From Paraspadella gotoi (taxonomy: Eukaryota > Animalia > Chaetognatha): a stretch of 64,000 nt of DNA. The notes below the pieces were generated by a model. The model saw only the letters and a program-made list of their open reading frames with translations, made no database searches and was not told the origin of the DNA. This document shows, piece after piece, positions 18,737-64,000 of the stretch. Made by a program: the position numbers and the translations under genes. How positions within the stretch are numbered: position 1 is the first letter of the stretch; every line of letters begins with the position of its first letter. The stretch covers positions 1,617,554-1,681,553 of the forward strand of contig CM119266.1 in NCBI GenBank assembly GCA_051294375.1. Direction: 5' to 3'.

Positions 18737-18984
18737 ATATGATTTTTTTAAATGTTTTTTTGTTAGTTGGATTCTTCAGCTTATTACATGTACTTTTAAT
18801 TACATTAATATTGTAATGGCTAAGTTTTTTTTCCCCTTCCCCAAGTTGTTTTTTTTTGGTTTCGAGTATATTTATACTATCTTTAAGTTGTATATTTTGT
18901 TTGTCTTTAATCAACAATACACAATTGCTTGTTCAATCTGCCATAGTTTATGCTTCAATTAACAGTTTTTAAGTTATTGACCAA

Positions 18985-21801
18985 ATGGCGGCGGCCATGG
19001 ACATTGATTTTCCCGAAGGGACCGATGAGGACACGATCCATCGAATTCGCGATTTAGAGCGACTATTGGAAAACGAAAGAAACAAACTCGCGTCCCGTTG
19101 CGTCATCGGGGACAAACCCAAGAAGCCTCTGGCTAAACCTCCGCCCTTCGAAGCTTTGGAAGAGCAGAATACGTTCGAGCGGGCGCAAGAGATCGTCGAC
19201 GAGGAGGCAGATACTCGGCCCGACATTGTCGAAGTTTCGACACCTCCATCGAAGGCTTCGCCGAAAAAAGAAGAAAAGAAGGAAAGAAAAAAGAAGGAGA
19301 AAAAGGAGAAGGCCATGGCTGAGTTGGAAAAATTGCGGCAGGAAAATGCGGAGCTGGAAAAGTTGCGAAAAGAAAATGAAGAGCACGATAAAATCTTGAA
19401 AAAGTTGGAAGCGGAGATCGAGAGGAACAAAGCGGAAAGAGCAGAGAAAAAGGAAAAGCTCAGAGTAGAAGAAAAGAAAGTCAACGCGGAGACGCTACGG
19501 CTGCAGCAGGAAATCGAGAAGCAAAAACAAATGGCTCGTCAAATATCCGCGCAGCAGCAGCGAGTAGGACAGCTGTTGCACAAGATGAATAAAGTTCGAC
19601 ACGTTCAAATCTGTTTCGTTACCAACATCCGAAACAAATCGGCGGAAGAAACGTTTCAAAAGGTTTACTGCAATGCGCAATTAATTGCATACTATCTGAG
19701 GCAAATGTTTTCCAAGCTGCAATTGGAGTTTGGCTTTGTTTTTGCCAGCGGGTACGCTAGCGCTCAAAAATTAGATTTCGACTATCAAGAAGCTTCCATA
19801 AAATGGTGTAAACATTCTGAATACAAGTGTGATTTTGACAGCGTCTTAAAAGAAACTCCTCACCTCAAATGGAACAGGGATTCTTTTAATATATTATATT
19901 TCCTCGTTGATTATTACCAGACTCCTACAAAAACTAAGGCAAAATTGGAAGAAGCTTTTAAAGACAAAGGACTTCGTAGAGTTATTGTTTCGACTGAAAA
20001 ACTCTTGACCAAACACGCACAAGATGGCTGGAAATCGATTATGCCTGTAGCTACATTTATAAGACAACATATCAATAAGGAAAACATAGTCTCTACCATA
20101 CAAACCTTACTAGAATCATTTCTCTGGTCTGAAGAGAATCAAGTGTTTAGGGACATGGCTTATGGAACAAACCCATGCCAAATTCCCTATCGAGATCCAC
20201 GACAGTGTACTGTTAGGCAACAAGGCGTTTTGCGCTACATGACAGTGAGAAAAAATCCGCCATCGTCAAGACATTACTACTTGACACGTGACGATATTGA
20301 GTCTAATATTTTTCAAGAACAAAAGACATTCGAAATCTTAAGGAGCTCAACGCCTTATGAAAATGATAGCGTTTGGAGCAAATACCAATGTTATCATAAT
20401 GACCAAGTGTTCACGTTGAAATGCTTCCATACCAACGATCTCTCTCACGATAAAAACATGATTGGCAGTATTTTGGAATCTATGAGCACGGCGAAATTTT
20501 TAGGGAATATTTTCAACGAAATGATTCCGACGAAAGAAAGTTTGTTTTTTGACGAGAAAAACAGTTTCGAATCCAACGACGCTGTGTTCCTTATTGAACC
20601 GATCGAAAGAGGCGAAAGGTTTTTCCGTTTTGACTCGATCGAACCGTTGACAGCTTTTTCACATTGGACTCACCACGTCACGAACGGCCTTCTCTTGGTC
20701 GAAATCATTGAAGCCTCCAAGACAGAACGCGGATATCATGTCAATGAGGTCGCTGTGCACTGCAAAGAAGTCCTTTCCTACGCGATGTCAAACTTGTCTA
20801 ATTCAGGAGTGGATAAATTCTTCGCTCGACACTCCTGCAACGCGATTTGCGGAAACCTACGACTGAGGCGGCATCCGAAGCAGGAAAAGGAGCCCGTTCG
20901 GGAAGTAGAGCCGAAGGTAGTCGAGAGTAAAGGCTACTTTTCGTCGATCGGTTCCAAAATAAAGAACGCTGTTTGGAGCGACGATCAGAACGGAAAAGAT
21001 CCTAAACCGTGTGAGCTCGCGTCGCTCGCCAATGATCGACGAACTGACTACGACGTTCGACGCAAGGAATACTCCTCCAACGATTACTCAAACGACAAGC
21101 ATTTGTTGCCAAATCCTAGTCCTCTTTTCGCTAAATCATCGCCGGCGGCGTCTCCCGTCGCTAAGCATAACTCCGAGAGAAAGCTGCCTCTGTTAGTGAC
21201 CGCCGGCGGTAAGAGCGGTTCAGATCTCGGCGAGCCGAAAGCTCCTGGTCTTTTGGAGAGCTCCCGGCGAGATTGTCAATCGAAAACCGATTCAGAACGA
21301 CAGATGTCTCCGGAACGTCGGGACAGCGGGCGGAAGAAGGTCGATAAAACAGAGTGTATAAGCTTGCTTGATAAGAGACAAGGACGCCATTCCAGTCCGT
21401 CAAAATCGCCAGAACGGAAGGGTCATCAGCCGAGGAAGATCAACGAAGCTCATGAAGACCCAATTGTCGAAACTCGTAAGTCTCCGGAACGAGGTGCCGA
21501 TCCATTGAATATTGGTAAAGATGATAAGTTGCTTGCTGGGAAACAAAACAAAAGATCCGATCGGTCGAGGTCGCCCGATAAACGGAATGCCGTTCTTAAG
21601 CATGCAAACAAAAACGACCATGCAAGCATGCTTTCCAGTCGACCCAAGAACTCGTCTCAATTGCAAGAATCCGTGCCAGAAGGCTATTGCGATTGTAGAC
21701 CCAAAGATTCTCAATTGAAGATGTTGTTGACGACAAAACCGACAAAGGACGGTTCGATGTTTCCAGAAGGCGACGAAGACGAATCTGAAAAAAGATATTG
21801 A
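18985..21801 (+). CDS. Intronless 938-aa paralog: coiled-coil, degenerate vWA, predicted alpha-pseudokinase and Ser/basic low-complexity tail
   Basis: Collinear with the upstream kinase: KVRHVQICFV~KAQIVDVCFL, LQLEFGFV~LRLNLAFV, STAKFLGNIFN~VVASFLASCFN, AFSHWT, HSCNAIC~HACNKVC. DLQG becomes IIEA and LTDP becomes VNEV. Confidence 0.88.
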   Translation: MAAAMDIDFPEGTDEDTIHRIRDLERLLENERNKLASRCVIGDKPKKPLAKPPPFEALEEQNTFERAQEIVDEEADTRPDIVEVSTPPSKASPKKEEKKERKKKEKKEKAMAELEKLRQENAELEKLRKENEEHDKILKKLEAEIERNKAERAEKKEKLRVEEKKVNAETLRLQQEIEKQKQMARQISAQQQRVGQLLHKMNKVRHVQICFVTNIRNKSAEETFQKVYCNAQLIAYYLRQMFSKLQLEFGFVFASGYASAQKLDFDYQEASIKWCKHSEYKCDFDSVLKETPHLKWNRDSFNILYFLVDYYQTPTKTKAKLEEAFKDKGLRRVIVSTEKLLTKHAQDGWKSIMPVATFIRQHINKENIVSTIQTLLESFLWSEENQVFRDMAYGTNPCQIPYRDPRQCTVRQQGVLRYMTVRKNPPSSRHYYLTRDDIESNIFQEQKTFEILRSSTPYENDSVWSKYQCYHNDQVFTLKCFHTNDLSHDKNMIGSILESMSTAKFLGNIFNEMIPTKESLFFDEKNSFESNDAVFLIEPIERGERFFRFDSIEPLTAFSHWTHHVTNGLLLVEIIEASKTERGYHVNEVAVHCKEVLSYAMSNLSNSGVDKFFARHSCNAICGNLRLRRHPKQEKEPVREVEPKVVESKGYFSSIGSKIKNAVWSDDQNGKDPKPCELASLANDRRTDYDVRRKEYSSNDYSNDKHLLPNPSPLFAKSSPAASPVAKHNSERKLPLLVTAGGKSGSDLGEPKAPGLLESSRRDCQSKTDSERQMSPERRDSGRKKVDKTECISLLDKRQGRHSSPSKSPERKGHQPRKINEAHEDPIVETRKSPERGADPLNIGKDDKLLAGKQNKRSDRSRSPDKRNAVLKHANKNDHASMLSSRPKNSSQLQESVPEGYCDCRPKDSQLKMLLTTKPTKDGSMFPEGDEDESEKRY

Positions 21802-27444: not shown

Positions 27445-30400
27445 TTAAAGCTGCCGTGCCATCCTGATGCAGCAGAACGCGACAACGGCGATGATGATGA
27501 TGATTACGACAATAGCGACGACGATACCGATGATCATGCCGAGACTGAGAACGCCCTGTTGACGATATCCCGGCCCTGTTAAAAAACATAAAACAAGTTT
27601 GAGCAAACGATGTCGGATCTGCCCACGATAATTAAGCGGTAATCAGATAAATAAATAAATACTATAGTAGAAATAATTACAAATAATTTTTTTAAATATT
27701 ATTAATTTTTTTAACTTGCATAATTTTTTTCAATTTGCATAATTTTGTCAAATTGCATCATTTTGTCAAATTGCATCATTTTGTCAAATTTCATCATTTT
27801 GTCAACTTGCATACTTTTTTCAACTTGCATTATTTTTAACTTGCATCATTTTTTTAACTCGCATCATTTTTTAGATTCGCATTATTTTTTCAACTTGCAT
27901 CATTTTTTCAACTTGCATCATTCTTTCAACTTGCATCATTCTTTCAACTTGCATCATTTTTTCAAATTGCATAATTTTTTTACATAATTAATTAATTAAG
28001 TAAGCATAAATAATAAAAATTCAATTCAACTTGACTTTTAGTTTTTTTCATGCAAACTCATTTCCACTTTTCGATTCCATCAAAACTTTATATCTTACTC
28101 AATCATACACTTTCCTACCCACACACAAAATTTAATCTCGATTTAATTCAATTAATTATGGGTTGAAATTAGTAAAAAGATTCAAATAAAAGTGACTTTT
28201 GTTTTTTCCATTTAAACTCATTTCCAATTGCACGATTCCATCAAAACTTTATATCCAGCTCAATCATACACAAAGTTTTATTCCAATACATCCATCCGAT
28301 TACGAGTAATTGGAGTTTAATGAAAAGGTGGGACGGACCTTCAGACAGACAGATGGACGGACAGACATTATTTTTGCTAAATTTAGCATAATATGTTCTG
28401 ATGTGATAAAAATGATTTACCGACAAGATTTAGGGGTGGGACCGAAGGACCAACAAAGTGAATTATAGAGTCGGAATCTGCTGATAAGCAGATCCGACTA
28501 AAAACGAACCTTTAAAAAATAATTATAATTGTTGCAAGCAAAAATTTTCTATGAAATTTACCGTAGGGTCTGTTATACTCTTCTCTGTATCGATATTCAT
28601 TTCTGTATCCGTTTTCGTAATATTCGTTGCCTTCAAAAATTTCTCCCATCTAAAAATGGAGTTCAATGTTATAATTACCTTATATAATAAATGATTTAAA
28701 AATGATTTAAAATCCAAATCTACAGATTAATATTCATTTCATGCATTAAAAATTTGCCCGTAACAAAAATAAAATAATTTAAACATCAAAATGCGTTTGT
28801 TGTTACAAATGCGATTTTACATATTTGTTTTTAAAACTAACCAAGCATTCAAAAATTGACGTCAAGTCAAACCTGTACAAGTTCTTTTGATTACAACTTG
28901 TTAAAATTTTCAAGATATCAACTGAGCGTTCAAAGAAACCAAACCCAAAAAAAAGACCTGACAAAAGAAATTAAACACTTACCCTTACCCTCGCGCGCCC
29001 ATACTGTGGATTTTTAATACAATAACTTAACTTATAATTATTTACTATAAAACGACGCGCTTCTAAAGTCAGGCCTCAAAATTGTTACAAGTAAAGGTAA
29101 GGGTTCAAGCTTAAAAAATAAATCGATTTAGTCCATTACACATTAGAGTAATAACATATATACAGAAACTCTATAGTATGAAATTGGTACAACCAATATA
29201 AAAATTATCCATTCATTTATAAATAAGCTATCTTGCCCCTGACTTTGGACAGGCTTTGGTGGTTTAAGGCCTCCATCACTCTACAAGATAATTACTAGAG
29301 GTCCCTGCAAGCTTCAATCAAGACTCTCTCACAGTCCCGTTTATTCACTCCAGAGTACCTGGGCTTCCCTATCAATGAAGTGGAAAATATTTCAAAGAAT
29401 GTTTCATTGTATGAAAAGACCACTCCCTTAAGTATTAGATCGGGGAATACTTATTGTACTCCGCACTAGCATCAAAATACAAGGAGCTGAATTTTATGAA
29501 ATTGGTACAACCAATATAAAATTGTCCATTCATTTAATAAATAAGCTATCTTGCCCTGACTTTGGACGGCTTTGGTGGTTTAAGGCCTCCATCACTCTTA
29601 CAAGATAATTACATAGCAGGTCCTGCAAGCTTTCAATCAAGACTCTCTCACAGTCCCGTTTATTCACTCCCAGAGTACCTGGCTTCCTATCAATGAAGTG
29701 GAAAATATTTCAAAGAATGTTTTCAATTGTATGAAAAGACCACTCCCTTAAGTATTAGATCGGGGAATACTTATTGTACTCCGCACTAGCATCAAAATAC
29801 AAGGAGCTGAATTTTATGAAATTTGGTACAACCAATATAAAAATTATCCATTCATTTAATAAATAAGCTATCTTGCCCCTGACTTTGGACAGGCTTTGGT
29901 GGTTTAAGGCCTCCATCACTCTTACAAGATAATTACATAGCAGGTCCCTGCATGTTGTAGTTTGGATCATAACAAGTCAGTTTGAACGGCGACTCACCCG
30001 AACTCTTGGCCCGACCCTGACTCTTGGCGTCAAACGAGGCGTTAGTCTCGTTCTTACCGATAGCGATTCATCTGAAATGGACATTTAATATTCATGATGA
30101 CCAACTAATGAAACATAGTACCATGGGCCCGGTTAGAGAGCAAAGAATATTTTTAATTCATTATTGAACCGAACTTGGGTTAGATTATAAGTAAATTATT
30201 TTAGCGTAATATTCATATTGCTTTTATGGTTCGGTTAGCTCAGCTGGTTAGAGCGTGGGGCTAACAACGACAAGGTCGAGGGTTCGATCCCCTCCCTGGC
30301 CAATGCCCATTTCTTTATATTTATTTTATGTAATACCTTTTCATTTTTTTTTCGTTGTCTTTCTTTTCTTTCAAAAAAAAATATATATTTCTGATTACTG

Positions 30401-33155: not shown

Positions 33156-36100
33156 TTTTTTGTCCGATTTTCTTTTTTTGCGGAGTTTTTTAATTGTTCA
33201 ATTTTATTAAATTACGTCATTTGGAATTTAACTGTTTATTGACAAACCGGTCGCCTTCAAAAACATTTACTCTTACAGAGGTAAAAATTCATAAAAAAAC
33301 AACAAAAAAACAGTGATTTGTATTGTTTGTTTTTTTTCCTGTGATGAGTTTTGGACAAAAAAAATTTAGTACTGTGGCTGTTGTTCGTTGACAGGAAACT
33401 GCAGCCGAAGTCACCAACCCGTAACTGTCAGTTGTCAATTGCTAGAAATTTCGTAATCATCGACTTCGATCAGCAAAATATAACAGTCAACTTCGAGATA
33501 AAGGAACAAAAATTGTCTTACTAAAAAATATGTTAGAAACATTATCTTAGAAGACAAATATATATCGTTTTATCAAAATATAATCAAGTGTTTTATTCAA
33601 AATATAAAACGAAAATTATTTTTCTCCAATTTCGATCTCGAGTTTGGATCGATTTATTTACGTTCGAGCAACTCGAGTCCCTGTCGCGAAATCCAGTTCT
33701 GTTTTTTTTTTTTTTTTTTAGATATTTTTTTGTGTCCACGTTGGCAAAGAAGGTTTTATCGAAGTCAGACCCGCGAGGAACGAGGGCGGCTTCGATCTTT
33801 GTTTGGGATCGAGGCTGCAATATTTTTTGCAATCACGAGACCGGGGTCGTTGGCCCGTATGTTGGAATTATGCAATTGTTAGATATAAGTCAACTTTATG
33901 ATTTTTTAGCGAGTAAAACAAATATCTTATTGTTTAGGAAACGCATGTAGTGAATGGTAAAATTGCATGATTTGATGTTATGACGTTTGTTGTGAGCGAG
34001 TGATTAGCCTCCATATATGTCAATCGTTTCAGTGACTGTCTTTGTCGCCCAATTTAAAATAGAAATAATATGTTTTTTTTCTTAAACTACAAAAGTCCCT
34101 AAAAAATTATTATTTTTTTTATAAATATTATCTTTTGTGATTGTGAACCCAACAATGCTAAAGGAAACAGTCTCAGTCAATGGCACGTAAGTGTCGACCA
34201 CGAGGATTTGAAATTCAATTAAAAATTAAAAATAAAAAAAGGGAAAAAATCTTTACTTTAGTTCCGGTTACTTTTTTTTTATCCCCGAAGAAAACAAATT
34301 GTAGAATGCTAAATTACAGCCAAATGACTGTTCTGCTTTGTTCGCTCCACCAACGGTAATAATAGCTGAAATTAAACTCTCTCTCTCCCTCTCTCTCTAT
34401 ATTTCTCTCTCTCTCTCTGTCAAAAACCGGTCTGTCGTCAGTTTCTAAATTTCGGATAAAAACGATCTCTACCGGTTTGATCAATGAACTGCAGGGTGAA
34501 GGACAAGATGATAATTTTTAGGTTTTGGCTGTGGAATCCACTTTATGCGACTCTTTTCGGTAAGTAAGTCGGCCATCTGAATGTGCTATTAATTCATATT
34601 AATTTAGACATATTAAATATTATTAATCAATTTTGATTACAAAGTTCCAGTTTGGTAGTTATCGATCTCAGGCTGACTCAGAGTCGCGGATGAAGGATTT
34701 AGAACCGAATGATATACAATTGAAACATTCTTTGAAATGTTATATCACTTCATTGATAGGGAAGCCATGGGCAAATTAGCTTAAATGAATGTATTATTTT
34801 ATATTGGTCGTACTGAGTTTATACGATGTAGGCGGTAATTTATTCTGTAGTGATAAAAGGGAAGAGCTAACTGATAGTGATGCTATAAAATATCTGTTTA
34901 GCTGTCATTCATTGTTTGTTTGTAATTTAACAAATTTCGAGTAAAAATTTAAAAGTTTATGGAATACAGAAACGTAATTGTCTCATAATGAGAAGATCAA
35001 AGTTTTAGGTTTAAGTGCGATGTAATTTTTCATTTACAGGGACCAAACAGGATTTTAGGATTCATGCAACTCCAGTTTTGTTAGAAAATTTCTCTAAAAT
35101 TATTTATCAGCTTTTTAAGCGATAGTATCTTGTAAAAAATATAAAGTTTTAATTCACATTAGGAAAACTTTGGTCTCTGATGCAAAATATCGGTGCAACC
35201 TGTTTCACAAATTTACAGTGTAATGACATAAGATTAAGACATTAATAATTTACATGAGTGCCATATTATCAAAGTTCGATACACAATAAAAAAATTTCGA
35301 ATCCAATATTTTATCATTTAAGCAGTGACAGGAAGCCTTTGTAAAAACATCACATAAAGCACGGTTCACAAGTTTTTCATTAAGAGAAAGAGAGAGAGAG
35401 AGAGAGATCTCCGAAAGTCAGATAATTTTTGCTGATGGCGTCTCTCATACATTAATTATTTCCTCTTCGCCATGTCCTTTTGTTTATAGAGTAACTAAGG
35501 ATATTTAGATTAGGAAAACGATTTTTTTTTCATAATCTAGAGAAAAAGTCACACGAGTGGATTGTTTAAAAACTTCAATTAAAAAGTTCAACAACCTTAG
35601 AAGTCATATGTAACAAATAAAATTTGTTAGGACAATGTATGTCCGATTTAAAAAAACTAAGGTAATACGTAAATACAGTCAAAATAAGCTAAAATTAGTA
35701 GGTTTGGTGAAATTTTGACTTGTGTTTTATTACAAATTTTGACAAGCTTGGGCAAAATCAATAAGAAGAGAGCCTTTTAAATCAATATTAGCCGCGATGT
35801 TTGCCTAACATATATTGACTTAATCCACAGACTTTAAAAGGGGCGATTACTAAACATACCAGATTATGTTTCTTCAAATTCAAGGTGGATTCGACAAGTA
35901 AAAATCACAAATTTGAATGAAAATATGACAGGAGTAAAACTAGGATAAGAAATAGGCAACCTCGAAACATTTTCTAACATCCATTTTTCGAAAATGGGTG
36001 CCATTAAAAATTCATATACGTATGCGTTTTAAGAGCAGACGATAGTTGTATAAAATATAAAACAAAAGGGCAGTTTTTTTTAAGCACAGCGAAATTAGAC

Positions 36101-38490: not shown

Positions 38491-39008
38491 GCGGCGGCGG
38501 CGTGAAAGATCCGGAGCAACGAGCAAACAAAATGTCAAAACTGAGTGGACGTAAAAATATTGAGAAACGAGCAAACAAAACGAGAAAAACAAACAAAACG
38601 AGAAAAAATAAACAAAAGTAGCGATGGAATCGTCGAAAGGACTTAAACTCTCCGAACACCAGTTTTGGTTTTTAGGTTAAAGGGGGACGATATCCTATGG
38701 AAATAAGAGAGAGAGAGGAGGAAGATGAGAGGAGAGGAAAGAGGAAGAGAGAGAGAGAGGAGGAGAGAGAGAGGAGAGAGATACCATTGCCTGTCCGAAG
38801 TGAGGGGCAAGATATACTATTATTCAATGAATGGATACTTTGAACAGTTGTCCTACTATTTAGTAGAGAGTAGTGTGTTTGAATCAGTAATAAGTTCGGC
38901 TGACTATAAAAACTATGATTCTTGATTAAAAAAAAAAATTTTCATTAAAGTTCTTGGTTTTTGTAAACATTTAGTAAATCCAATTACGTTTGTTGTAAAC
39001 AAAAGTAC

Positions 39009-41766: not shown

Positions 41767-41861
41767 TCCGTGGGCATGGGTTTCGAACCCGACAGCCATC
41801 ATCCCACTTGACTTGGCCTTAAAGACCACGCCAATCCGGCCGCTCAGCCGGCGCCGACGGA
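41767..41861 (-). pseudogene. Degenerate type-II tRNA-like sequence (Leu/Ser-derived)
   Basis: A-box-like GGCTGAGCGG, B box GGTTCGAAACCC, long variable arm and acceptor-like pairing TCCGTCGGC/GCCCACGGA. The anticodon region GTCTTTAAGG is irregular. Confidence 0.5.
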
Positions 41862-45999: not shown

Positions 46000-46683
46000 A
46001 TTAGTCAATTAATAATTAATTAGTCAATTAATAATTAATTAATTAATTAATTAATTAATTAATTTTTATATTTTTTTTCTTTTCATAGTAAATGTAAATG
46101 CCCACGATGCAGATGATCGGATAACTATTTAATCAATTAATTGGATAATTAATTAATTTATTAATTAATTGCCTAATTAATTAATTATTATACTTATTAA
46201 TTAACTATTACAGGTTACATATGGTTACAGGTTACCAATGGCCGCTGATGAACCATTGGTGGATTTTCATCCACCATAACATTTACATTTAATACAAAAG
46301 TAAGAAGCATAATCAAATAGTGAAACAGCTTTTTTATATTTTCCATTTAAATTCCACTCGGACGATTCCATCGAAACTTGATTTCCAGCTCAAGCTCACA
46401 CTTCTTTACCCACACACAAAATTTCAAGTAAATCGACTCATCCGCTCATAAATAATTGGCGTTCATTGCTAAGTGGGGACGTACGGACGGACGTACAGAC
46501 AGACAGACAGATAGACGGACGGACGGACGGACGGACGGACATCATTTTTTTTTGATTATTTATCATAATTTGATGTTCTGACATGATCTCAGTGAATGAC
46601 CGACAAGATTTTGGGGGGGGATCGACGGAGCGACAAAGTGAATTAAAGAGCCGGAATCTGCTGTAAGAAAATCCGGCTAAAAA
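46000..46683 (-). mobile_element. HINE/DINE-1-like element, copy 3 (left boundary approximate)
   Basis: Same core (GACGATTCCATCGAAACTTGATTTCCAG), (GGAC)n and end GCCGGAATCTGC..ATCCGGCTAAAA as copies 1 and 2. Confidence 0.75.
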
Positions 46684-51183: not shown

Positions 51184-54100
51184 ATGTCTCGAATGCGCGA
51201 AAACAAGAAAAACGCAAAAACTGCTCGGCAAATGCGGCAGCGCCACAGCGACGTCTTGATCGAGCTGCGCAAACTTCGACGTAGCGTCCAACTCCTCGAG
51301 CGTCGGAGCCTTTTTATTGAAGATATTGCCGAAGATTTGGTCGGCGAGCTACCCGACGATCCCGCGGAGATTAAGTTGGCGGCGGAGGCCAAAGAACCGC
51401 GGGCGTCTACTACGACAGCAGCTGGAGCGGAGGAAGCTCCGCCTATGGCGGTTGCAGTGGAGAAAGCTCTGCCTGAAGCGCCTGCAGTAGAGAAAGCTCC
51501 GCCCGAGGAATCTCCTGCAGAGGTTGCTGCGGTGGAGGAATCTCCAGCAGAGGTGGCTACAATGGAGGAGGCTCTGACGGCGATGGAGGAAGCTTCTTCA
51601 GAGGTGTCGGATGTTAATCTGGTGGAGGAAGCTTCATCAGAGGCAGCTTCGGTGGAGGAAGTTCCGGCGGCAGTAAGTCCGGTGGACTGCGCCTCTCCGG
51701 CTTCAACTGCGGCGGAAGCAAAGACTCGGGCTCAGAATCAGATGAAAAATAAAGTGGCTTTCGTGACCAGCTATCTTTGCACTACTAATGCTAAGCTGGT
51801 TCATCGTGGTATTCGAATGGCTCGTCTCACGATGACGCGGGAGAAGAGCGACTTTGTCCAAGAATTCCTCGCGAGGCAGAGCCTCAACCTGCTGGTCCGC
51901 TTTTTGCAGCCGGAGACTAGCATCGTACAGCAGGAAAGAGACCAAAGCCCACTAAACTCATTAAGGTTAGACTCGGCGAAAGCGTTGTTAACGATCGCGC
52001 TCGAGTCAAAGGAGGCGGCGGCGGCGGTGGCCGATGCCGGCGCCATACCGCGCCTCGTCCACTTTACGAGATGCTTCGGTCATGTCGAGGTCGAAGTCAT
52101 CCAGCAAGCCCTTATGACGATGGGCGTCATTGCTAAGGCAGGCCCCGACTATAGAGACATGGTTCTGCGGAGCGGCGCTTTGCCGCCGATGCTGGAGCTG
52201 TTGAAGACGAGCCATTGGGCAGGTAAAAAAATTCGGGTTGAGAATCCCGATAAAAATCCGGGTTATAGATTTTTATTCTAGAAGGCTTTTCTATAAAATA
52301 ATTAGTGAAAGATTAAATTTTACGTTCGCCTACTGGGATTATCGCTACTTACGAGTAGCAATTTCAAAAAAAATATTTCATAAAAATGATAAAAGTTGTT
52401 GTCTAACTACCCTAACCACCCCTAATCCTAGTCAGCCAATGTAAAATTAGCTAAATAATTTTATAATGGTTGTCCAAATTTTCTAACCAGTTTTTTATTT
52501 TTTTTTGTTTTTTAGTCGTATTCTCATAGACTTGGTATCAAAGTAACATTGTTTTCCTTATTTTGAACTACGCTGCGTTCGTAAGCCGCGAGCCGCTAAT
52601 TTGTCCCTGACCCGCTTTTAACCCTGACCCGCTTTTGTCCCTGAACCGCTTTTGACCCTACTATTTTAACAGCATTAATCAATCACATCGCCTTCGCTCT
52701 GCGTCGCCTCTGCATGCACGCGGAAAAGCCCCTCGACGTCGACCTCATAAAACCAGCCTTATGCATTCTCCTCTCCTTTCTCAAGTGTCCGGACCCCAGC
52801 ATACAGTTCCACGGCAGTCTCTCATTGGCCGAACTGTCGGAGATGGGGGAACCGGTCGTCGAGGCCCTCGTGAAGTCGCACGCGGTCCCAGCGCTCGTCC
52901 CCGGGCTGAACGGCGACAACCCGAGGCTGATGAGACCCTGCCTCGCAGCGCTGCGGAATATCGCGCGCGGTACGCAGAGCCAAGCGCAGGTATCTTTGTC
53001 AAGGTTTATCGTTATGAAATTGGTACAACCAATATAAAAATTATCCACCCATTCAACAAATAAGCCATCTTGCCCCTGACCTTGGACAGGCTCTGGTGGT
53101 TTAAGGCCTCCATCACTCTTACAAGATAATGACATAGCAGGTCCCTGCAAGCTTTCAATCAAGACTCTTTCACAGTCTCGTTTATTCACTCCCAGAGTAC
53201 CTGGCTTCCCTATCAATGAAGTGGAAAATATTTCAAAGAATGTTTCAATTGTATGAAATATAAAAATATGAAATATAATTATCTGGGTTTTTTCTTTCAT
53301 AATTCAACTGGTTCATTTCCTTTTTTTTATATCTTCCCGATTATTTCGGATTTTTTTCATTTTCTTTCCCCTTCTACTGATATTCTTTCTAGCTCGCTTA
53401 TTTACTTTTATCATTCACTCAATTCTATTATTTCCTCTTTCGACACCCAGGCCGTCGTCGACGCGTGCCCCTGGTCCCAACTCGGCTCACTGCTCCAGTA
53501 CGGAGACCCCTATATTCGGTACAGAGTGGCTTGGTTGATCGGCGACGCGCTTCGCTGGTTTGAAACCGAAGAAGAGTCCCTAGTCAATGCTGTTGCGGAT
53601 GGAAATCTGTTGACGCCTCTGACGATACTCGCTCGAAAAGGACTTGAATACGTAAGGACATCGGGGAATGGGGGGGGGGAGAAATAGGTAGTTTTAACTA
53701 ATTCGAATTGGGAGGCTGAAAGAAAAGAGGCTGAGGGGAGTTGCTCCTCAAGCAAACGAGGATGTTACATAGAATATTTATATTTATTTATTTCCGATAA
53801 AACTCGTTTCAAACCTTACGACCCAGATCAGATATCAACCCTTGATTCTTAATTTAGTATAGGACCTATTTATTTTTCTTTTTTTTTTCTAATCGCAGGT
53901 TCAGTCTGCGGCACTCAGAGCAATCTTCATCATTACCAACTATAAATCTCCTCAACTCGTCAAGAATTTCGATTTGAAGCTCGTCATTGACTATTGCAAT
54001 CTTCTCGACTGCAGCGGTCGCGATTCCAAGGTGAGGCTGCTTGGTTGAATCCGAAACTTAACTTTTAGAATAGTAATGTTTAAAATAGTTAATTTGCGCA

Positions 54101-55490
54101 CCTTGGTTTTACTGAGACACAAAGGTGAAACCAAAGTGGATTTTATTTCTTTAGAAAATGGTCAATAATAAAAGACGGTGCCAATTTTCGGGGCAGAGTA
54201 AATCAATACAGATTTGGTTCAAATTTATACAGTTCCATCGGATCGGAGGTAAGGGTAAAAATCAGCGGCGGATGGAAGCCTATCCGATCATTGGCCGGTG
54301 CCATTTGTCTCTTGACCCATGAGAAAGTTCCATTCTGGTTCCGGCGGATTTCACCCGAGTCGTTGACCCGATTTCGTTTCTGGAGACTTGATTCCTCTGC
54401 CATGCACTCGTATGCAAAAAAAAAAAGGTGCCAGTTTATAACTTTATATTCCAGACGCTCTATAAAAATATTTAAAAATTCATATAAGCAAAGGAAAGTT
54501 TTTAGCCGGATCTATATATAGCAGATTATGGCTCTGATTCATTTTATCGCTCTATCGGTCCAACCGAAAAAAACTTGTCGGTAAGTTATTTAAACCATTT
54601 CAAATTAATCAAATTATAATAATAATTTAAGCAAAAAAAAAATGATGTCCGTCTCTGTCAGTCCCACCTTAGTTTTAATCGTAATTACTCATGAGTGGAT
54701 GGGGCGATTACTTTACAATTTTTTTGTAAAGGTAGAAAAGTGTGATTGAGCTGGAAATTAAGTTTAGATGGAATCATCCGAGTAAAAATAAGCTTTTAAA
54801 AAAAAATCTATTTAAATCTTTGATTATACTTTCTCTTTATATTAAACTCATTAATAAAATTAAAAATATAAAAATTTTAAAAAAATATTAAAATGAAATT
54901 TGATAAAAATATTGGAAAAAGATGAAAAAATAATTAATTAATAATTTGATCAGTTGCATACTGCAAAATATTAAAAGGGAAAAGATTAATCTTAAATTAT
55001 ATTTTTATACCTTTAGTACGGAGCGACCGATTTTTATAAAAATTATTACTTTTTTTTAATAAATTTTATTTTATATAACGATTTTTTTAAAAACTTAAGT
55101 AATAAGTATATAGGGTGATATAAAGTGGCGCGATTTTTTGAAACTGGCTTTAACGTAACTGACTTTTTCTACAAAACTTTATCAACACCCCTATTTAACT
55201 TTATTTTTCTTGCTCACAATTTCACTGACCCTTTTTCTCACCCTATCCAGAATCAACTGATTCTCTTGGACATAATTGACAACCTCATTTGCATCTCCAA
55301 GCGGACGAACCAATTCGGCAACATGATCTTCGACATCGAGGATTGCGGCGGACTGGACAAGATAGAGCAGCTTCTGTCCTCCGAAAACGACGAAGTCTTC
55401 GACGCCGCCACGGATATCATCGAGCAGCATTTCACAGAGAACGAAGAGAACCAAAAGAATAACACGTCCTACTTCGTTCTGAAAGACTGA
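51184..55490 (+). CDS. Divergent importin-alpha (karyopherin alpha), join(51184..52222,52673..52989,53451..53651,53899..54030,55251..55490), ~642 aa
   Basis: All junctions are GT-AG and in phase. IBB-like MRQRHSDVLIELRKLRRSVQLLERR, ARM repeats (VADAGAIPRLV, GPDYRDMVLRSGALPPML) and C-terminal IEDCGGLDKIEQLLSSENDEVFDAATDIIEQHF. Confidence 0.9.
53013..53258 (+). repeat. Single copy of the repeat that is arrayed at 29177-29953, in importin intron 2
   Basis: High identity from ATGAAATTGGTACAACC to CAATTGTATGAAA. Confidence 0.9.
54499..54850 (+). mobile_element. HINE/DINE-1-like element, copy 4 (degenerate, opposite orientation)
   Basis: TTTTAGCCGGATCT..GCAGATT, GTCCGTCT microsatellite remnant and reverse-complemented core. 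Confidence 0.6.
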
Positions 55491-56631
55491 AAGACTTTTA
55501 AAAGTTTGAAAAGTTGATTTTATCGTTTGGGTAGGGGGGGATTGAATTGTTTTGAACGTTGTTTGTTGACTTTTTAGAAATTCGTTGCTGTTAAACGAAG
55601 AAACTATTTGTTAAAACGTTTCAAGAGATTGTTTAAAAATAAACATCAGTTGATTGTAATTACTTTATTTATTTCTATAACATGAGCGAGCAAAGCCTGA
55701 TTTATACAGAAATCAAAGAAAAGTTACAAAGCCATTAATCTACAAGCCCCAGCCGATAATAGTTAGAATTCTTTGCGTAGGAAAGTAGCCAGAAAATTGT
55801 TAGATTTTAATAAAATGACGGAAGTATCAACGGAAGTACAGCGAAAAAACTAGTGCAAACCTCTAAGGCTTAGCCTCAGACCTGAGGTTAAAACTCTGCA
55901 AAAAAAATATGTGCTAGATAGTACCCTCAATTGTGCTAAAAATAGCCGATTTTTTTTACTATGCTGAATATGCCAATTTCTTTTAGATAAGTTAATGCAA
56001 AACTGTTTCGAGAAATTATTATTATTAGAGCTTATGAAAAATCATTTAAAAAGACGAAAAAATTATACTTTTGTGAATTTCTTAAGCGACGAGCCATATA
56101 TAACCGGTCAAGTCCTGTAAAACAAAGGTATTTCACAGCAGCAATTATCAAACTGACGCCATAGTGTCTTGCACTTGTAAAGTTGCTTACAGAATTACAC
56201 AAGCGTCTCAGAGTAAAATCGGTATTAAACCAATACTTTGGGAACGGAGTGCTAGCATTTAAACAAAGCCAGTCTCAAACAATTGTAGAGGGAATTAATA
56301 TGATGGGTAACTTTACTATTCGACGTCCGCAACCAACCACAACCTTCACTCTAATGTAATATTTTTTTAGTTGAAAAAAAGGTTAAATTATACTTTCGCC
56401 GACCGCGTTTTGGCGGCTTATTTAAAAAAATAAATATTATTTAATTACTTTAACCCTAAACCCTTTTAACCCTAATTACCCCTAACCACCCTTAACCCTA
56501 AACCATTCTTAAACTACCCTTAACTCTAACCCTTACCTAACCCCGATCGACTAAAGTAAAAATAATCCGAAAAAATGATATTATTCTGGTGGTCCTATCA
56601 CCACAGATGGATTAAAGCTGTTTCTTTCACA

Positions 56632-56858
56632 GCGCCTCAGTTGCTCAGTGGACTAATGCACAATGTGCGTCCCTGGTTCGAGCCCTGAGGTTGTCATGTA
56701 GAAAGTGGGATGGACCGGGTAACCCGCCTGTAGGCATGGGCCTACTGTCAGATCCAAAGCTCTGGACTACATGAACATGCTGTCTCGCTGTCGCCACGAG
56801 GTGACACCGCTGCGGGTGTGGCGCCCTGTAAAACCAGCCTATTCATTATCATATATTT
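56632..56858 (+). ncRNA. Unit A: tRNA-like Pol III head (56632-56693), putative P5-type twister ribozyme (56694-56774) and tail ending at TTTT
   Basis: A box TTGCTCAGTGG, B box GGTTCGAGCCC, acceptor GCCTCAG/CTGAGGT. Twister: P5 TCATGTAG/CTACATGA, GA-TGG, T|AA at 56720/56721, GCC, P3 GTAGGC/GCCTAC, P4 TCAGA/TCTGG, loop TCCAAAGC. Confidence 0.72.
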
Positions 56859-56891
56859 TATGGTGGACTAAAATCCACCAACCGTTCATCA

Positions 56892-57092
56892 GCGGCCATT
56901 GGTGCCGGAGGCAAGTCATTCGCCTCCCAACCCAAAGGTCCGGGGTTCTAGCCCGGTGGTCGTCTGGCAGTTAAGAGGAACGGGGCGCTTAACCCGCCTG
57001 TAACATGGTGTTACAGCCTGATCCGAAGCTCAGGGACTGCTTATATTGAACAGTTCTGTCATTAACACTTATCAATAATTACTGTCTCTTCA
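56892..57092 (+). ncRNA. Unit B: tRNA-Gly(CCC)-like head (56892-56963) and putative P5-type twister ribozyme (56966-57041)
   Basis: Acceptor GCGGCCA/TGGTCGT, TCGCCT-CCC-AA, GGTTCTAGCCC. Twister: P5 GGCAGTT/GACTGCT, CGG, T|AA at 56990/56991, GCC, P3 TGTAACA/TGTTACA, P4 CCTGA/TCAGG, loop TCCGAAGC. Confidence 0.68.
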
Positions 57093-57875
57093 TTGGTGAG
57101 CCCGACTTCCGAACACAACAGCAACAACAACACTTTCAGGTGACATGCCTCAACCTGGCGATGCACTTTCCGCCCACAACACATCAGGCGACATGCCTCA
57201 ACTTGGTGATGAACTTTCCACCAACAACAACAATTCACAGAAGAGACGCAACAGACTTATCAATAATATCAATAATTACTGTCTCTTCAATTTTATATTA
57301 TTTGTTTAAATTTATTTTAATTATTATTTTTGTTATATTATAGTTAAATTAAATTAAGGGTAATTAGAGATTAAGAGTAATTAGGGTTTAAGGTTAGTTT
57401 AGGGATTTTTTAAAATAACATTTGTAATAAAAACTTTTTTTATATTTTTGTGTAACGAGATTTCTATACATCATTCATAAACAAACAAAAAAATAACCGA
57501 CAACAAAATCCCGGTCGGCGTATATAGGGGCAAGATAGCTTATTTATTAAATGAATGGATAATTTTTATATTGGTTGTACCAATTTCATAAAAATAAGCC
57601 AATATGATTGTTATCAAAGAAGTAAAAAATAAAATAAGCAAATAGCATATTTTAATACAAATTTAAATTGCCACAGAAGAGTTTTTCATAATTTATTCAA
57701 TGCTGTAGATTCGAAAACCTTGTCTTTTTTTTTTACATTTTTTTACAGGCCAAACGGTCAGAAATTATGCCAGATCTGACACACAGTATGCTAAGTTTAA
57801 ACCAGAGTCTTAGTCTTTTGTTCAATTTTTTGTGACAATCCGTAATTCTCTGCGCCCCCGAATTGCCGTGCTTTC

Positions 57876-57913: not shown

Positions 57914-58039
57914 TGAAAAGCATCAGCAGGCAACAGCTCAGGTACGATCGTTATATTCGTAAACTGTCTTCGATTCTCATGCATTCTCAATAATCAAAGA
58001 AAAAATAATCAAAGAAATAAAACATTAATCAATACCGTT

Positions 58040-59197
58040 ATGGCGCTCGTGTCTGCCCAATATTCTGACTCTGAGGGAGAACTAAGCGACGGAGGGCAAC
58101 GTGATGTCAACGACGATGACTATTTTAGCGATGCCCCAGCCTCTGCTCTCCGCCGTGATCCTTCCATTCTCCCCTTTGCTCATCTCTCCGCCGAAAACCA
58201 ACCCTCGGGGGGCAGCAGCGGCCACAACACGCCACCCCCTCCGCCACGTGGGGGCCGCGCCCCGTCGGGATCTCCGGACGCGATTCCGGCCTCGCTTCTC
58301 GGCAGCCGTCAGCCGAGCCCCAAGTCCGGTGGGACGGACTCGCCACTCGTTCGCCTCATGCCAACACAGCGGCTCAAATCTCACGGCCTCTCTGGACTCG
58401 TCTCTTATCCCGGGGAGGAGGAAGAGGAGGAAGATGATCCTGACAATTACGAAGTCTACGATGATTACAAGGAGAAAGAGAACGAGCCTGAGAAAAGAGG
58501 ACTCGACGAGGGACTCGTTCCCGACTACATGGATCTCTCCTCTGCCAATATGAGCGTAATGGTCGTTGAAGCCGCCCCACCCGCAGAAGGTGATTCCAAT
58601 TCCTACGCCGACACCTCCGCAATCCCGCCCGAACCTCAGGGCCGCTGCTCAAAAGCGCTACAGGAAAATATCGCCCTGAAGTATGAGCGGTATCTACGTG
58701 AGGAAATGGACTACAACAAAGCTATTCAACGCAAAAAAGAATTCAAAAATCCATCCATTTATGAAAAACTCATCGAGTTGACCGGGATTTACGAATTCGG
58801 CACCAACTATCCGGCTCAAGTATACGACCCCCATTTTTGGGGGGATCAGGCTTCCTATGAAGATTTGGCCAAAGCGCAAAAAGTTGAGATGGACAAACGC
58901 GAAGAAAAGCGAAGGGGGGAAGGTGCCAGAGCTAAAGTGGAATTCGTTTCAGGCACTGCTAGAAAACCAACTTCATCTTCCACCATTGCTGACACTGATA
59001 GCAAAGAGAAAAAGCGGAAAAGCAAATGGGATCAAGGCGCCGTTGATGGAGCGTTGGCTGCGTCGTCGGCGTCGTCGTTGTCCCTAACTGATGTCCCGGT
59101 CGCAGTGACGTCCTCGAGTGTTCTTCCCGTGGCGTCCGGTACGAAGACGACCGTTATCTCTGCTGTTGGAGGCCTCTCAAAAAAGACTAAGTCTTAA
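58040..59197 (+). CDS. SAP30BP: SAP30-binding protein (HCNGP family), intronless, 385 aa
   Basis: [66 protein letters not shown]. Confidence 0.93.
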
Positions 59198-59396: not shown

Positions 59397-59420
59397 GAAA
59401 TCACCAAGACTTTCCAACCC

Positions 59421-59464
59421 CAAAGGCCCTTTTTAGGGCCTCTATTTTCCTCTCAAAAGAATTG
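59421..59464 (+). terminator. Histone 3' stem-loop and histone downstream element-like purine tract
   Basis: CAAA-GGCCCT-TTTT-AGGGCC at 59421-59440 and AAAAGAATTG at 59455-59464. Confidence 0.85.
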
Positions 59465-59624
59465 TCTAACTTATTGTACCCAAATGCAATCAGAGAGCTC
59501 TTGGCGGATTTTATCCTAATCGCGGGTCAGATTCCATCTGCGATGCTATAGATAAATATCCATCAGTGTTTTGTATAAAACTAATTGTAAACAATTTTGA
59601 GTCTTGGTTTTTTTTTAGGTTATA

Positions 59625-60375: not shown

Positions 60376-61484
60376 TATATTTACACATATTACAGAATCA
60401 AGGAAACGTATTTCTGAAAGTGAAGACATACCTCTCGCCCCCTTTTTAAAACTCATTTGCAGACTTGTGTACATATCATATTTTGTTTGTTTTCTGTAAT
60501 TCAACCTTGTTGCATTCGAATAAAACGCTTATAAATAATTAGTGTCTCAAGCGTACTGTCACTTTACAAATGTCAAATTGGTGATTATCAATTTGATAGA
60601 ACCACCGGAGAGATAAGTTCATACAGTTTCTTTTGGTAGCTATATTATCACTTTTATTTTTATAGATACAATGCAAAGTTCAAATGAAGGGGAATTTTGT
60701 TTTGACAGTTGATCAAAAGATTTTGGTGAAATTTATAATGTAGTCCTGCTTTTGGTTACAAATATAATTCTACATATTATATTATTGTAGGCCACTGTTT
60801 ATAGGGCTTTGACTAAGAATTTTGTGAATTTGGAATGATTGACGATGATGATGATGATTTCAGAAAAGAAGATTCAAAGAATTATTATGAACACTCATTT
60901 AAGTTTATCTTCAGGAAACTGATAAAAGCTTCAAATTTAGTATCCTATGATTCAGCATATGATGCATAGATGCATTGAGTACATTCTACTGCTAAAACTA
61001 TTTTCCAGATGACTGCAGCTCACAAGCATTGCTAAAATAATAATAATAATGTAATTGGCTCTGTCAAACCAGCTGAATATCTGTAACAATCTTTCAATTA
61101 AAACTAATCAAATACCCTCAAATCCGGAAGGACAATGGTGAAATTCTATTAGGAAAGGCCTGTGACCTTCACTTTACAATGGCGACGTATTATTATATAA
61201 CTAAAGTTTTTTTTAAAAAAAATTTAGGTAATTGGAAAGAATATTTTAAAATTGTTAAAAGTATTTTCGACATTGGCTGATAAAATGTGATATAGAGGGT
61301 TAGAGGGTCTCGTGCTTCAAGCCCGGCCGGCATCGCCCACATTAATCCCCCTCGAACAAGTTTAGATTTTAAAAATAAATATATAAAACTAAGAACTTCT
61401 GGATCCAAGGAGTACAGTAAATGCATTTTTTATAACTGTACTGATTCACTGTATTCATTTGTACAGTAACAGTACGCTTGAGAC

Positions 61485-61580
61485 ACTATTTAATTAATTA
61501 TGAATTAGTGACAAACCGTTCAATATCAGCAGTCCCTGAGCTTCGGATCAGGTTGTAACACAATGTTAAGGCGGGTTTAA
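61485..61580 (-). mobile_element. 5'-truncated dispersed copy of unit B (3' part of the twister plus tail)
   Basis: The minus strand reads AACCCGCCTTAACATTGTGTTACAACCTGATCCGAAGCTCAGGGACTGCTGATATTGAAC; upstream sequence is unrelated to unit B. Confidence 0.8.
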
Positions 61581-61783: not shown

Positions 61784-64000
61784 TCAGTTGCATACTGCAA
61801 AATATTAAAAGGGAAAAGATTAATCTTAAATTATATTTTTATACCTTTAGTACGGAGCGACCGATTTTTATAAAAATTATTACTTTTTTTTAATAAATTT
61901 TATATAACAATTTTTTTAAAACTTAAGTAATAAGTATTAGGGTGATATAAAGTGGCGCGATTTTTTGAAACTGGCTTTAACTAACTGACTTTTTCTACAA
62001 AACTTTATCAACACCCCTATTTAACTTTATTTTTTCTTGCTCACAATTTCACTGTCCCTTTTTCTACCCTATCCAGAATCAACTGATTCTCTTGGACATA
62101 TTGGACAACCTCATTTGCATCTCCAAGCGGACGAACCAATTCGGCAACATGATCTTCGACATCGAGGATTGCGGCGGACTGGACAAGATAGAGCAGCTTC
62201 TGTCCTCCGAAAACGACGAAGTCTTCGAACGCCGCCACGGATATCATCGAGCAGCATTTCACAGAGAACGAAGAGAACCAAAAGAATAACACGTCCTACT
62301 TCGTTCTGAAAGACTGAAAGACTTTTAAAAGTTTGAAAGTTGATTTTATCGTTTGGGTAGGGGGGGATTGAATTGTTTTGAACGTTGTTTGTTGATTTTT
62401 AGAAATTCGTTGCTGTTAAACGAAGAACTATTTGTTAAAACGTTTCAAGAGATTGTTTAAAAATAAACATCAGTTGATTGTAATTACTTTATTTATTTCT
62501 ATAACATGAGCGAGCAAAGCCTGATTTATACAGAAATCAAAGAAAAGTTACAAAGCCATTAATCTACAAGCCCCAGCCGATAATAGTTAGAATTTTTTGC
62601 GTAGGAAAGTAGCCAGAAAATATTGTTAGATTTTAATAAAATGACGGAAGTATCAACGGAAGTACAGCGAAAAAAACTAGTGCAAACCTCTAAGGCTTAG
62701 CCTCAGACTGAGGTTAAAACTCTGCAAAAAAAAATATGTGCTAGATAGTACCTCAATTGTGCTAAAAATAGCCGATTTTTTTTACTATGCTGAATATGCC
62801 AATTTCTTTTAGATAAGTTAATGCAAAACTGTTTCGAGAAATTATTATTATTAGAGCTTATGAAAAATCATTTAAAAAGACGGAAAAAATTATACTTTTG
62901 TGAATTTCTTAAGCGACGAGCCATATATAACCGGTCAAGTCCTGTAAAACAAAGGTATTTCACAGCAGCAATTATCAAACTGACGCCATAGTGTCTTGCA
63001 TTTGTAAAGTTGCTTACAGAATACACAAAGCGTCTCAGAGTAAAATCGGTATTAAACCAATACTTTGGGAACGGATTGCTAGCGTTTAAACAAAGCCAGT
63101 CTCAAACATTGTAGAGGGAATTAATATGATGGTAACGTAACTTTACTATTCGACGTCGCAACCAACCACAACCCTCACTCTAATGTAATATTTTTTTAGT
63201 TGAAAAAAAGGTTAAATTATACTTTCGGCGACCGCGTTTTGGCGGCTTTTTAAATAATTATTTAAAAATAAATATTATTTAATTACTTTAACCCTAAACC
63301 CTTTTAACCCTAATTACCCCTAACCACCCTTAACCCTAAACCATTCTTAAACTACCCTTAACTCTAACCCTTACCTAACCCCGATCGACTAAAGTAAAAA
63401 TAATCCGAAAAATGATATTATTCTGGTGGTCCTATCACCACAGATGGATTAAAGCTGTTTCTTTCACAGCGCCTCAGTTGCTCAGTGGACTAAATGCACC
63501 ATCCCAATGTGCGTCCCTGGTTCGAGCCCTGAGGTTGTCATGTAGAAAGTGGGATGGACCGGGTAACCGCCTGTAGGCATGGGCCTACTGTCAGATCCAA
63601 AGCTCTGGACTACATGAACATGCTGTCTCGCTGTCGCCACGAGGTGACACCGCTGCGGGTGTGGCGCCCTGTAAAACCAGCCTATTCATTATCATATATT
63701 TTATGGTGGACTAAAATCCACCAACCGTTCATCAGGGCCAATTGGTGCCGGAGGCAAGTCATTCGCCTCCCAACCCAAGGTCCGGGGTTCTAGCCCGGTG
63801 GTCGTCTGCAGTTAAGAGGACTGGGGCGCTTAACCCGCCTGTAACATGTGTTTACAGCCTGATCCGAAGCCAGGGACTGCTTATATTGACGGTTCTGTCA
63901 TATACACTTATTACATAATTACTGTCTCTTCAATTTTATATTATTTGTTTTAAAATTTATTTTAATTATATTTTGTTATATAATAGTTAAATTAGATTAA
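61784..64000 (+). repeat. Near-identical duplicate of ~54950-57350 (importin last exon, MITE, units A at 63469 and B at ~63735); haplotig or segmental duplication
   Basis: Collinear sequence starting right after an N-gap, with scattered 1-nt indels (importin exon frameshifted) and lacking the insertion at ~57093-57290. Confidence 0.93.

Follow-up and report, generated by a model that had tools for sequence, protein, structure and literature searches.

Tandem ribozyme elements headed by a Pol III promoter are already known with the hammerhead ribozyme. In the available parts of the source papers, Sm-alpha of Schistosoma consists of tandem units in which a Pol III promoter is followed by a hammerhead (PMC6765202), and the element is tRNA-related (PMC2770079). 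Animal retrozymes carry type I hammerheads and are described, in the text available, as promoterless (PMC7229834, PMC7761336, bioRxiv 10.64898/2026.07.22.740005); the words 'twister' and 'tRNA' occur nowhere in the accessible portion of the last of these. Animal twisters are described at the 5' ends of RTE retrotransposons in the available passages of PMC8501958 and PMC7761336, and the accessible part of PMC10085705 reports no further twister permutations.

The window analysed here, a whole stretch of 64,000 nucleotides (64 kb), is AT-rich animal DNA that carries two diverged units, A and B, each composed of a tRNA-like head and a closed fold; every element that a preliminary description of the sequence had reported in them was found at its place. 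Like Schistosoma Sm-alpha and Sj-alpha, as far as the available text describes them, the units combine a predicted Pol III promoter ahead of the ribozyme, a tandem arrangement and a relation to tRNA, and cutting would leave the promoter in the 3' portion of each monomer, as in Sm-alpha. They are unlike Sm-alpha, on the same partial account, in that the ribozyme is a putative type-P5 twister and no hammerhead, the head resembles tRNA-Gly(CCC), the two units have diverged, and the same genome has a head-less sister family, D.

Other described systems resemble the locus in part. Animal non-LTR retrozymes, as portrayed in the accessible text, consist of tandem non-coding units that measure 150-450 bp and carry a single ribozyme apiece, a trait shared here (D has 2.4 units of 320 bp). 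D also has the low GC content (37%) of retrozymes and lacks a B box, whereas A and B have 56% GC and box promoter elements; the predicted cut sites of A and B lie 270 nt apart. The type I hammerhead, the hallmark of retrozymes, had no match around A and B in the Rfam scans, the fold there being that of a twister. The T-variant twisters of Perere-3/RTE likewise belong to an animal retroelement, with a long P3 of the same base sequence and copies that start at the cut (PMC8501958); according to the portion available, however, they are of type P1 and sit at the 5' terminus of a LINE that has coding capacity and target-site duplications, and they have neither tRNA head nor tandem units. In the gut-phage theta ribozymes a small ribozyme stands right behind a tRNA (PMC10879173), but these are described in the available text as HDV-like, attached to real tRNAs and cutting <=5 nt from the tRNA end, whereas the predicted cut in unit B lies 26 nt past the head.

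The preliminary description knew of no described tRNA-SINE with this layout but allowed that one might exist. A promoter followed by a ribozyme in tandem is in print with the hammerhead in the available part of the Sm-alpha literature (PMC6765202); a natural twister element with a tRNA head, or one that is tandem or dimeric, did not turn up in the literature searched. The reading favoured here, with somewhat better than even confidence, is that A and B are small non-coding retrozyme-like retroelements with a twister, predicted to cut themselves at a U-A step midway through the fold, in a manner that may depend on dimers.

Structure of units A and B

Units A and B align without a gap from P5 through to the start of P3, and both were read as type-P5 twisters (Table 1). 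Their elements run in the order P5, three nucleotides, a 4-nt P2 strand, a purine-A with three pseudoknot bases, a 6-nt linker and UAA, and then CCC, GCC, P3, G, a P4 of 5 bp closed by a loop of 8 nt, a single purine and P5. The element order, the UAA cut site, the L1' purine-A, the two pseudoknots, P4/L4 and the ends in P5 are those of the type-P5 twister RF02684; the 6-nt P1 linker, the bulged 3-bp P2, the 5-bp P4 (A and B) and the lack of an Rfam match set the units apart from it.

Table 1. Features of the window; positions are counted from its first nucleotide.
Feature	Position	Strand	Remarks
Family D tandem array	29177-29952	-	2.4 units of about 320 bp, twister variant in each; cut-site U at 29906, 29582 and 29266; linker A-GGCC-U
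D copy	34714-34819	+	ribozyme removed by internal deletion
D-like fragment, diverged	38783-38854	+	begins about 5 nt past predicted cut
Fragment bridging the last part of tail A and the start of head B	46233-46285	-	
Family D single copy	53013-53258	-	intron of importin-alpha-like gene; cut-site U 53103; 3' end as in array
Shell around A+B	56380-57525	.	inverted TAACCC-rich ends, 56380-56560 and 57290-57525 (fold-back DNA-type repeat)
Head A, tRNA-derived	56634-56691	+	closing stem of 7 bp, 56634-56640/56685-56691; A box 56641-56651; B box 56675-56684
Twister A, type P5	56695-56773	+	P5 56695-56701/56767-56773; general base G56709; L1' GAUGG 56709-56713; linker A-CCGG-G 56714-56719; predicted cut between U56720 and A56721; P3 56728-56747; P4 56748-56765 with loop UCCAAAGC
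Tail A	56774-56891	+	two GC-rich hairpins, AT-rich stretch, small hairpin preceding head B; T4 run 56856-56859
Head B, tRNA-Gly(CCC)-like cloverleaf	56892-56964	+	73 nt; ARAGORN at 80% threshold: possible pseudogene; anticodon loop 56924-56930; B box 56944-56953, one mismatch
Twister B, type P5	56967-57040	+	P5 56967-56971/57036-57040; A56979 at general-base position; L1' AACGG 56979-56983; linker G-GCGC-U 56984-56989; predicted cut between U56990 and A56991; P3 56998-57016; P4 57017-57034 with loop UCCGAAGC
Tail B	57041-57092	+	
D 3' fragment	57526-57590	+	3' end matches other D copies
Tail-only fragment, B/C type	60524-60573	+	
Copy C, solo B-like, decayed	61441-61577	-	match to B starts at first base past predicted cut
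Second A+B copy	63471-63932	+	within 2.1-kb duplicate 61784-63932, starting directly after N gap

The cut-site U-A-A, followed by the P2 and T2 strand, is present in A, B and D. The T1 pseudoknot between L4 and L1 (3 bp) reads CCA/UGG in A and D and CCG/CGG in B, as the preliminary description had stated for A and B, and the 2-bp T2 pseudoknot, which joins L2 with the end of L4, reads GC/GC in A and B and AC/GU in D. In all three, P2 has three pairs with a bulge and a covarying first pair, P4 has 4-5 bp and P5, in which the termini lie, has 5-7 bp, with a pair probability of 0.97-1.0 in A and B. A P1 stem is absent from A, B and D, and one pair with a palindromic tetraloop (the 6-nt linker) stands in its place. 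The general-base position is occupied by G-A in A and D and by A-A in B, the second copy of B differing at that position. Family D sets the register, by which the general base of A is G56709 and its counterpart in B an A. The twister pairing pattern recognised earlier was confirmed; the A56979 of B, the bulged P2 and the short P1 linker had been missed. The type-P5 assignment and both predicted cut positions are supported, with family D adding evidence beyond the two units.

A descriptor of the fold, drawn up after the sequence had been inspected, matched only at 56720 and 56990 in the window and nowhere in 600 shuffled windows. The pair count over four A/B rows (94% paired) was not significant, being reached by 36 of 500 shuffles. 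In nearest-neighbour folding with pseudoknots left out, the twister-compatible monomer fold lay 8-17 kcal/mol above the minimum, and the preferred folds hid the cut site or the P2 strand. Four positions of Osa-1-4 tolerate no single change (PMC5113685); all four are retained in A and B; in D, G13, one of the four, has changed along with its partner. The available portion of PMC11662667 reports that imperfect P1, P2 and P4 are tolerated in natural twisters, and that those with a G-to-A change at the general base were cleaved to a mean of 0.54, against 0.76, so a G56709A mutant is a weak negative control. Judged by sequence features, A and B are twisters in every respect save P1, the Rfam score and the general base of B. 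The units very probably belong among the twister homologues, and self-cleavage by at least one of the families is predicted with good confidence.

The ribozyme follows the head at a spacing of 2-3 nt in both units (2 nt between head B and P5). Neither head was called by ARAGORN at its default threshold or by Rfam. The A and B boxes are better in head A than in head B, whose A box is weak, but the cloverleaf of head A has collapsed; its anticodon arm lacks 7 nt relative to the second copy, where a CCC loop is kept. The alignment of that second copy of head A with head B beat 2000 of 2000 shuffles, and the closing stems of the heads are strong (z -2.8 to -3.9). The relaxed ARAGORN call, the boxes and this homology uphold the earlier view that the heads are tRNA-derived; that the A box of head B is poor had gone unnoticed there. 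The T4 run in tail A, a possible Pol III stop, is the sole one within A+B. Homology was not significant between tails A and B, nor between tail A and the region upstream of head A (220 of 2000 shuffles).

A reading-frame scan placed SAP30BP-like, importin-alpha-like and alpha-kinase genes in the window. The SAP30BP-like frame (57917-59197, 426 aa) is intronless, and a match to a histone-type 3' stem-loop lies downstream of it at 59420-59465, with 29.3 bits against a cut-off of 34. Two long alpha-kinase frames lie adjacent to each other at 16673-18736 and 18973-21801, the first with a vWA domain (vwkA-like). ARAGORN also reported a tRNA-Val(AAC) at 30227-30303 (+) and a 'Stop'(TTA) tRNA-like sequence at 41768-41853 (-), which are possibly SINE heads.

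Family D, dispersed copies and twister models

Family D was found at four sites, with E values of 4e-4 to 0.011, by model R2, which was built from A/B copies alone. Its layout is that of A and B without the P3 extension, the tRNA head and the B box. The units of the array are 95% identical, the core is intact in two of the three array units, and the motif positions give predicted cut-to-cut lengths of 324 and 316 nt; the copy at 53 kb has an A-to-G change in L4. Candidate tRNA heads in D were rejected, as they were called only at ARAGORN thresholds of 60-70%, amid other spurious calls. The first P2 pair is A-U in D as against C-G in A and B, both partners having changed with the bulge retained. 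The compensatory changes that D carries in P2 and in T2 argue that the fold is real and that it has been under long selection. A descriptor of the pairings only matched A, B and two D sites, with no match in 1000 shuffled windows, and a relaxed version gained the 53-kb D copy and no other site. The comparison of a D unit with tail A plus head B gave a hint only (17 of 1000 shuffles as good). D is a cleaner retrozyme candidate than A and B.

The second copy of A+B belongs to a 2.1-kb duplicate (54950-57092 against 61784-63932) that includes the last importin-alpha-like exon. Between the two A+B copies there are 17 substitutions and 36 gaps, 21 of the gaps being single-base ones in homopolymers. 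As the differences are mostly indels and the copy follows an N gap, it was not counted as independent, and it is probably an allele or an assembly duplicate. Single bases in A and B are uncertain because the assembly is indel-rich. The second copy lacks a 197-bp piece (57093-57289) that contains a 48-bp tandem and lies between direct repeats of 23 nt.

The dispersed copies in the 64 kb comprise three A/B-type fragments, none with a whole head, and five D loci, the array included. The junction of tail A with head B exists elsewhere, since the fragment at 46 kb spans it. Three D loci share their final 3' base, and the 5' ends are ragged. Two of the eight dispersed 5' ends, those of copy C and of the 38.8-kb fragment, lie at the predicted cut or about 5 nt past it, for which a rough uniform model, chosen afterwards, gives a chance of about 1% (0.008 was computed for seven ends). 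The likeness of the B tail to the 38.8-kb fragment is a hint only, with 10 of 1000 shuffles as good. Target-site duplications were found neither for copy C nor for three D insertions, which showed only AT-rich chance matches of 5-8 nt, and the 21 plus 103 window reading frames scanned held no reverse transcriptase, endonuclease or transposase families (the 103 were taken from 139 listed, the remainder overlapping known genes or having been scanned). Spread of the element through RNA is considered fairly likely.

The likeness of the inverted shell ends was reached by 7 of 2000 shuffles. The shell is related to a repeat at 52290-52480 in an importin intron, with none of 2000 shuffles as good. 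A+B may have inserted into the shell or may have been carried by it.

The Rfam twister models, offered by the preliminary description as a check, gave no match to A or B (RF02684 and RF03160, even at E 10 on an 89-nt stretch); the Rfam scans covered units A and B, at E up to 10 or 5. Reference twisters came from pattern scans of viral contigs. The Rfam gathering score was passed by 2 of 20 type-P1 loci, and that for type P5 by 2 of 12 loci and by 3 of 10 viral loci. The base of P3 in unit A is, letter for letter, that of the Rfam twister-P1 consensus, and schistosome twisters have the same P3 base in the available text of PMC8501958. A 3-nt P2 strand also occurs in viral type-P5 twisters that pass Rfam, having been imposed by the search pattern in one of the viral scans. 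P4 has 5 bp in A and B, one pair more than the 4 bp of all 61 viral cores, and the 6-nt P1 linker of A, B and D compares with hairpins of 16-30 nt in all six viral type-P5 examples checked. If the favoured reading is true, this is a twister shape that escapes Rfam, A and B having gone unscored and a 320-bp array unnoticed in 64 kb, and counts of twisters in animals are likely too low.

The core model R1, built on 35 viral twisters with L4 set by the search pattern, scored three of the five A/B-type cores (B', B and C at E 0.65, 1.1 and 3.2) and listed neither A copy nor D. Model R2, from four A/B copies, placed viral twisters at the top of a ranking that, of 95 intended loci, took in 80, with best E values of 8e-5 and 2e-4; two chance loci chosen by the family pattern reached E 0.03 and 0.09. 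Pattern searches for relatives returned no loci in viral contigs, 29 in metagenomes, none with twister pairs on inspection, and four in GTDB, none scoring better than E 0.47 with models R1 and R2. The palindromic-linker pattern gave four loci, none with P4 pairing, a psRNA2-like pattern gave two, without an Rfam hit at the match, and phage BLAST with the units gave no match. These searches brought up no relative beyond the window. Among viral sequences below the Rfam cut-offs, three twister-like ones (L182:298-352 (-), L191 and L176) have a 3-nt P2 strand and a 5-bp P4 as in A and B, and twister pairs 220-600 nt apart in the same orientation occur in five viral contigs (L091, L092, L135, L043 and L180).

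The palindromic linker and possible pairing between copies

The linkers of A, B and D each have one closing pair (a mismatch in A) around a palindrome, and the three palindromes are different. Palindromes are 16 of all 256 4-mers and 4 of the 16 GC-only 4-mers; three by chance would be expected at 1 in 64 for GC-only cores, and the palindromic linkers are a lead, not proof. The middle two linker bases cannot pair within the hairpin, yet they are complementary, which indicates pairing between copies. Linker self-duplexes were calculated at -8.1 to -9.1 kcal/mol, and A with B at -2.0. A strand-swapped dimer came out 10-20 kcal/mol better than two twister-shaped monomers and, with pseudoknots left out, 6.5-13.7 kcal/mol worse than two misfolded monomers. 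In the predicted misfold of A and B the linker Gs trap the P2 strand, which a palindromic duplex, on this model, would free.

The closest parallels are found in hammerheads. In the available text, those of axolotl retrozymes have a single pair with a palindromic tetraloop and cut efficiently only as dimers (PMC7229834), and Penelope hammerheads have the same one-pair, palindromic-tetraloop, dimer-cutting design (PMC6765202). The closing helix described here is like that of the axolotl HHR_Amex1, which, on the same partial account, cuts well only as a dimer. The accessible part of a twister review names dimers solely as a crystal artefact and does not contain 'palindrom' (PMC5408937). P1 was dispensable in tested twisters, according to the available portions of PMC11662667 and PMC5408937; monomers may therefore cut, and the palindromes are perhaps just weak hairpins. 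Dimer-dependent cutting is given a little less than an even chance.

The palindromes, P5 strands and pseudoknot bases of A do not match those of B, and A+B therefore looks like a hybrid of two subfamilies. A 270-nt circle running from A to B would not restore a ribozyme.

If the favoured reading is true, the tandem ribozyme retroelements of animals are not bound to the hammerhead, and the twister can fill that role. The likeness would include the palindromic helix, through which cutting comes to require a second copy, so that the purpose of the dimer switch would become testable across two ribozyme chemistries. If dimer dependence is also true, this would be a natural dimer-dependent twister, with two unrelated ribozyme classes converging on one retroelement control logic. 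A Pol III head with a tandem twister would further be the natural counterpart of the engineered tandem-twister constructs for circular RNA described in the available text of PMC7229834.

Proposed cycle and competing explanations

In the proposed cycle, Pol III would start at head A and either stop at the T4 run or read on into B, and D would be transcribed by read-through from outside promoters. The twisters would cut at 56720/56721 and 56990/56991, leaving 2',3'-cyclic-phosphate and 5'-OH ends, and the pieces between cuts would measure about 320 nt in D and 270 nt from A to B, the promoter coming to lie in the 3' part as it does in Sm-alpha. As P1 consists of one pair and a palindromic tetraloop, the active form would probably be a strand-swapped dimer of like copies, by which cutting would be restricted to tandem or abundant transcripts; because the loops of A and B do not match, the A+B locus is perhaps an old hybrid that cuts poorly. 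An autonomous element, either Penelope-like by analogy or RTE, would supply the reverse transcriptase that copies the cut RNA, whether linear or as a ligated circle. A wider and more tentative proposal is a twister-based animal retrozyme superfamily with dimer-dependent cutting, in which the palindromic helix evolved independently, circles would arise from tandem transcripts only, and one branch captured a tRNA-Gly Pol III promoter with which it would drive its own RNA.

An ordinary tRNA-SINE could alternatively have borrowed its twister end from an RTE/Perere-3-like non-LTR element, with monomers that cut and A+B as a chance dimer. The order of head, ribozyme and tail, the T4 stop after unit A and the dispensability of P1 fit this explanation, as does the start of copy C at the cut, which recalls the Perere-3 copies in the available text of PMC8501958. 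However, RTE twisters are of type P1 and lie at the 5' end, whereas the P5-type fold here has both halves inside the unit; the ribozyme of D is tandem and head-less, the palindromic loops are left unexplained, and target-site duplications were not found for C or the three D insertions. This origin is considered unlikely. A plain dispersed tRNA-SINE likewise fits less well than a tandem retrozyme or Sm-alpha-like element, given the head-less D array, the tail A/head B fragment and the same missing duplications.

The units might also be dead relics of ribozyme retroelements, no longer cutting or transcribed, with A+B carried passively in the fold-back DNA shell. The missing general-base G of B, the poor A box of its head, the shortened anticodon arm of head A, the dominance of the predicted misfolds and the relation of the inverted shell ends to the 52.3-kb repeat are consistent with decay. 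The 95% identity of the D units, the core retained in two of the three, and the compensatory changes between the families, which point to long selection on the fold, argue against it, and this explanation is judged improbable.

Less probable by far is a host non-coding RNA gene in which the ribozyme would trim a tRNA-like Pol III transcript to a stable regulatory RNA, in the manner of theta ribozymes, the dispersed pieces being pseudogenes. The start of the ribozyme 2-3 nt past the tRNA-like 3' end and the strong closing stems of the heads would suit such a gene; the heads are not intact tRNAs, D is head-less, and the predicted cut 26 nt past head B is at odds with the <=5 nt of theta ribozymes in the available text of PMC10879173.

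It is scarcely credible that the fold is no ribozyme and unit A a relative of bacterial psRNA2 or the IS481 left end, or that the pattern arose by chance: psRNA2 (RF02349) is the best Rfam match of unit A (19.6 bits, E 0.011-0.24), and a plasmid psRNA2 matches it at 81.5% across 53 nt (E 0.4), but the Rfam score is far under the 65-bit gathering score, the match is lost in the second A copy, the plasmid sequence lacks the L4 loop and the L1' strand and has its UAA paired, and B and D retain the twister pairs and not the psRNA2 sequence. The kinship, tried as a candidate, was treated as probable chance in view of the missing L4 and the paired UAA of the plasmid member, and the psRNA2-like lead was absent from two genomes and 14 controls.

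A separate observation concerns psRNA2 itself. On plasmid NC_012723.1 (L200:344-544, 143 bits) and at L201:2501-2599 it occupies the antisense strand of the 5' leader of an IS481-family transposase gene. It recurs up to several times per plasmid, and the family may be an insertion-sequence end, not a small RNA.
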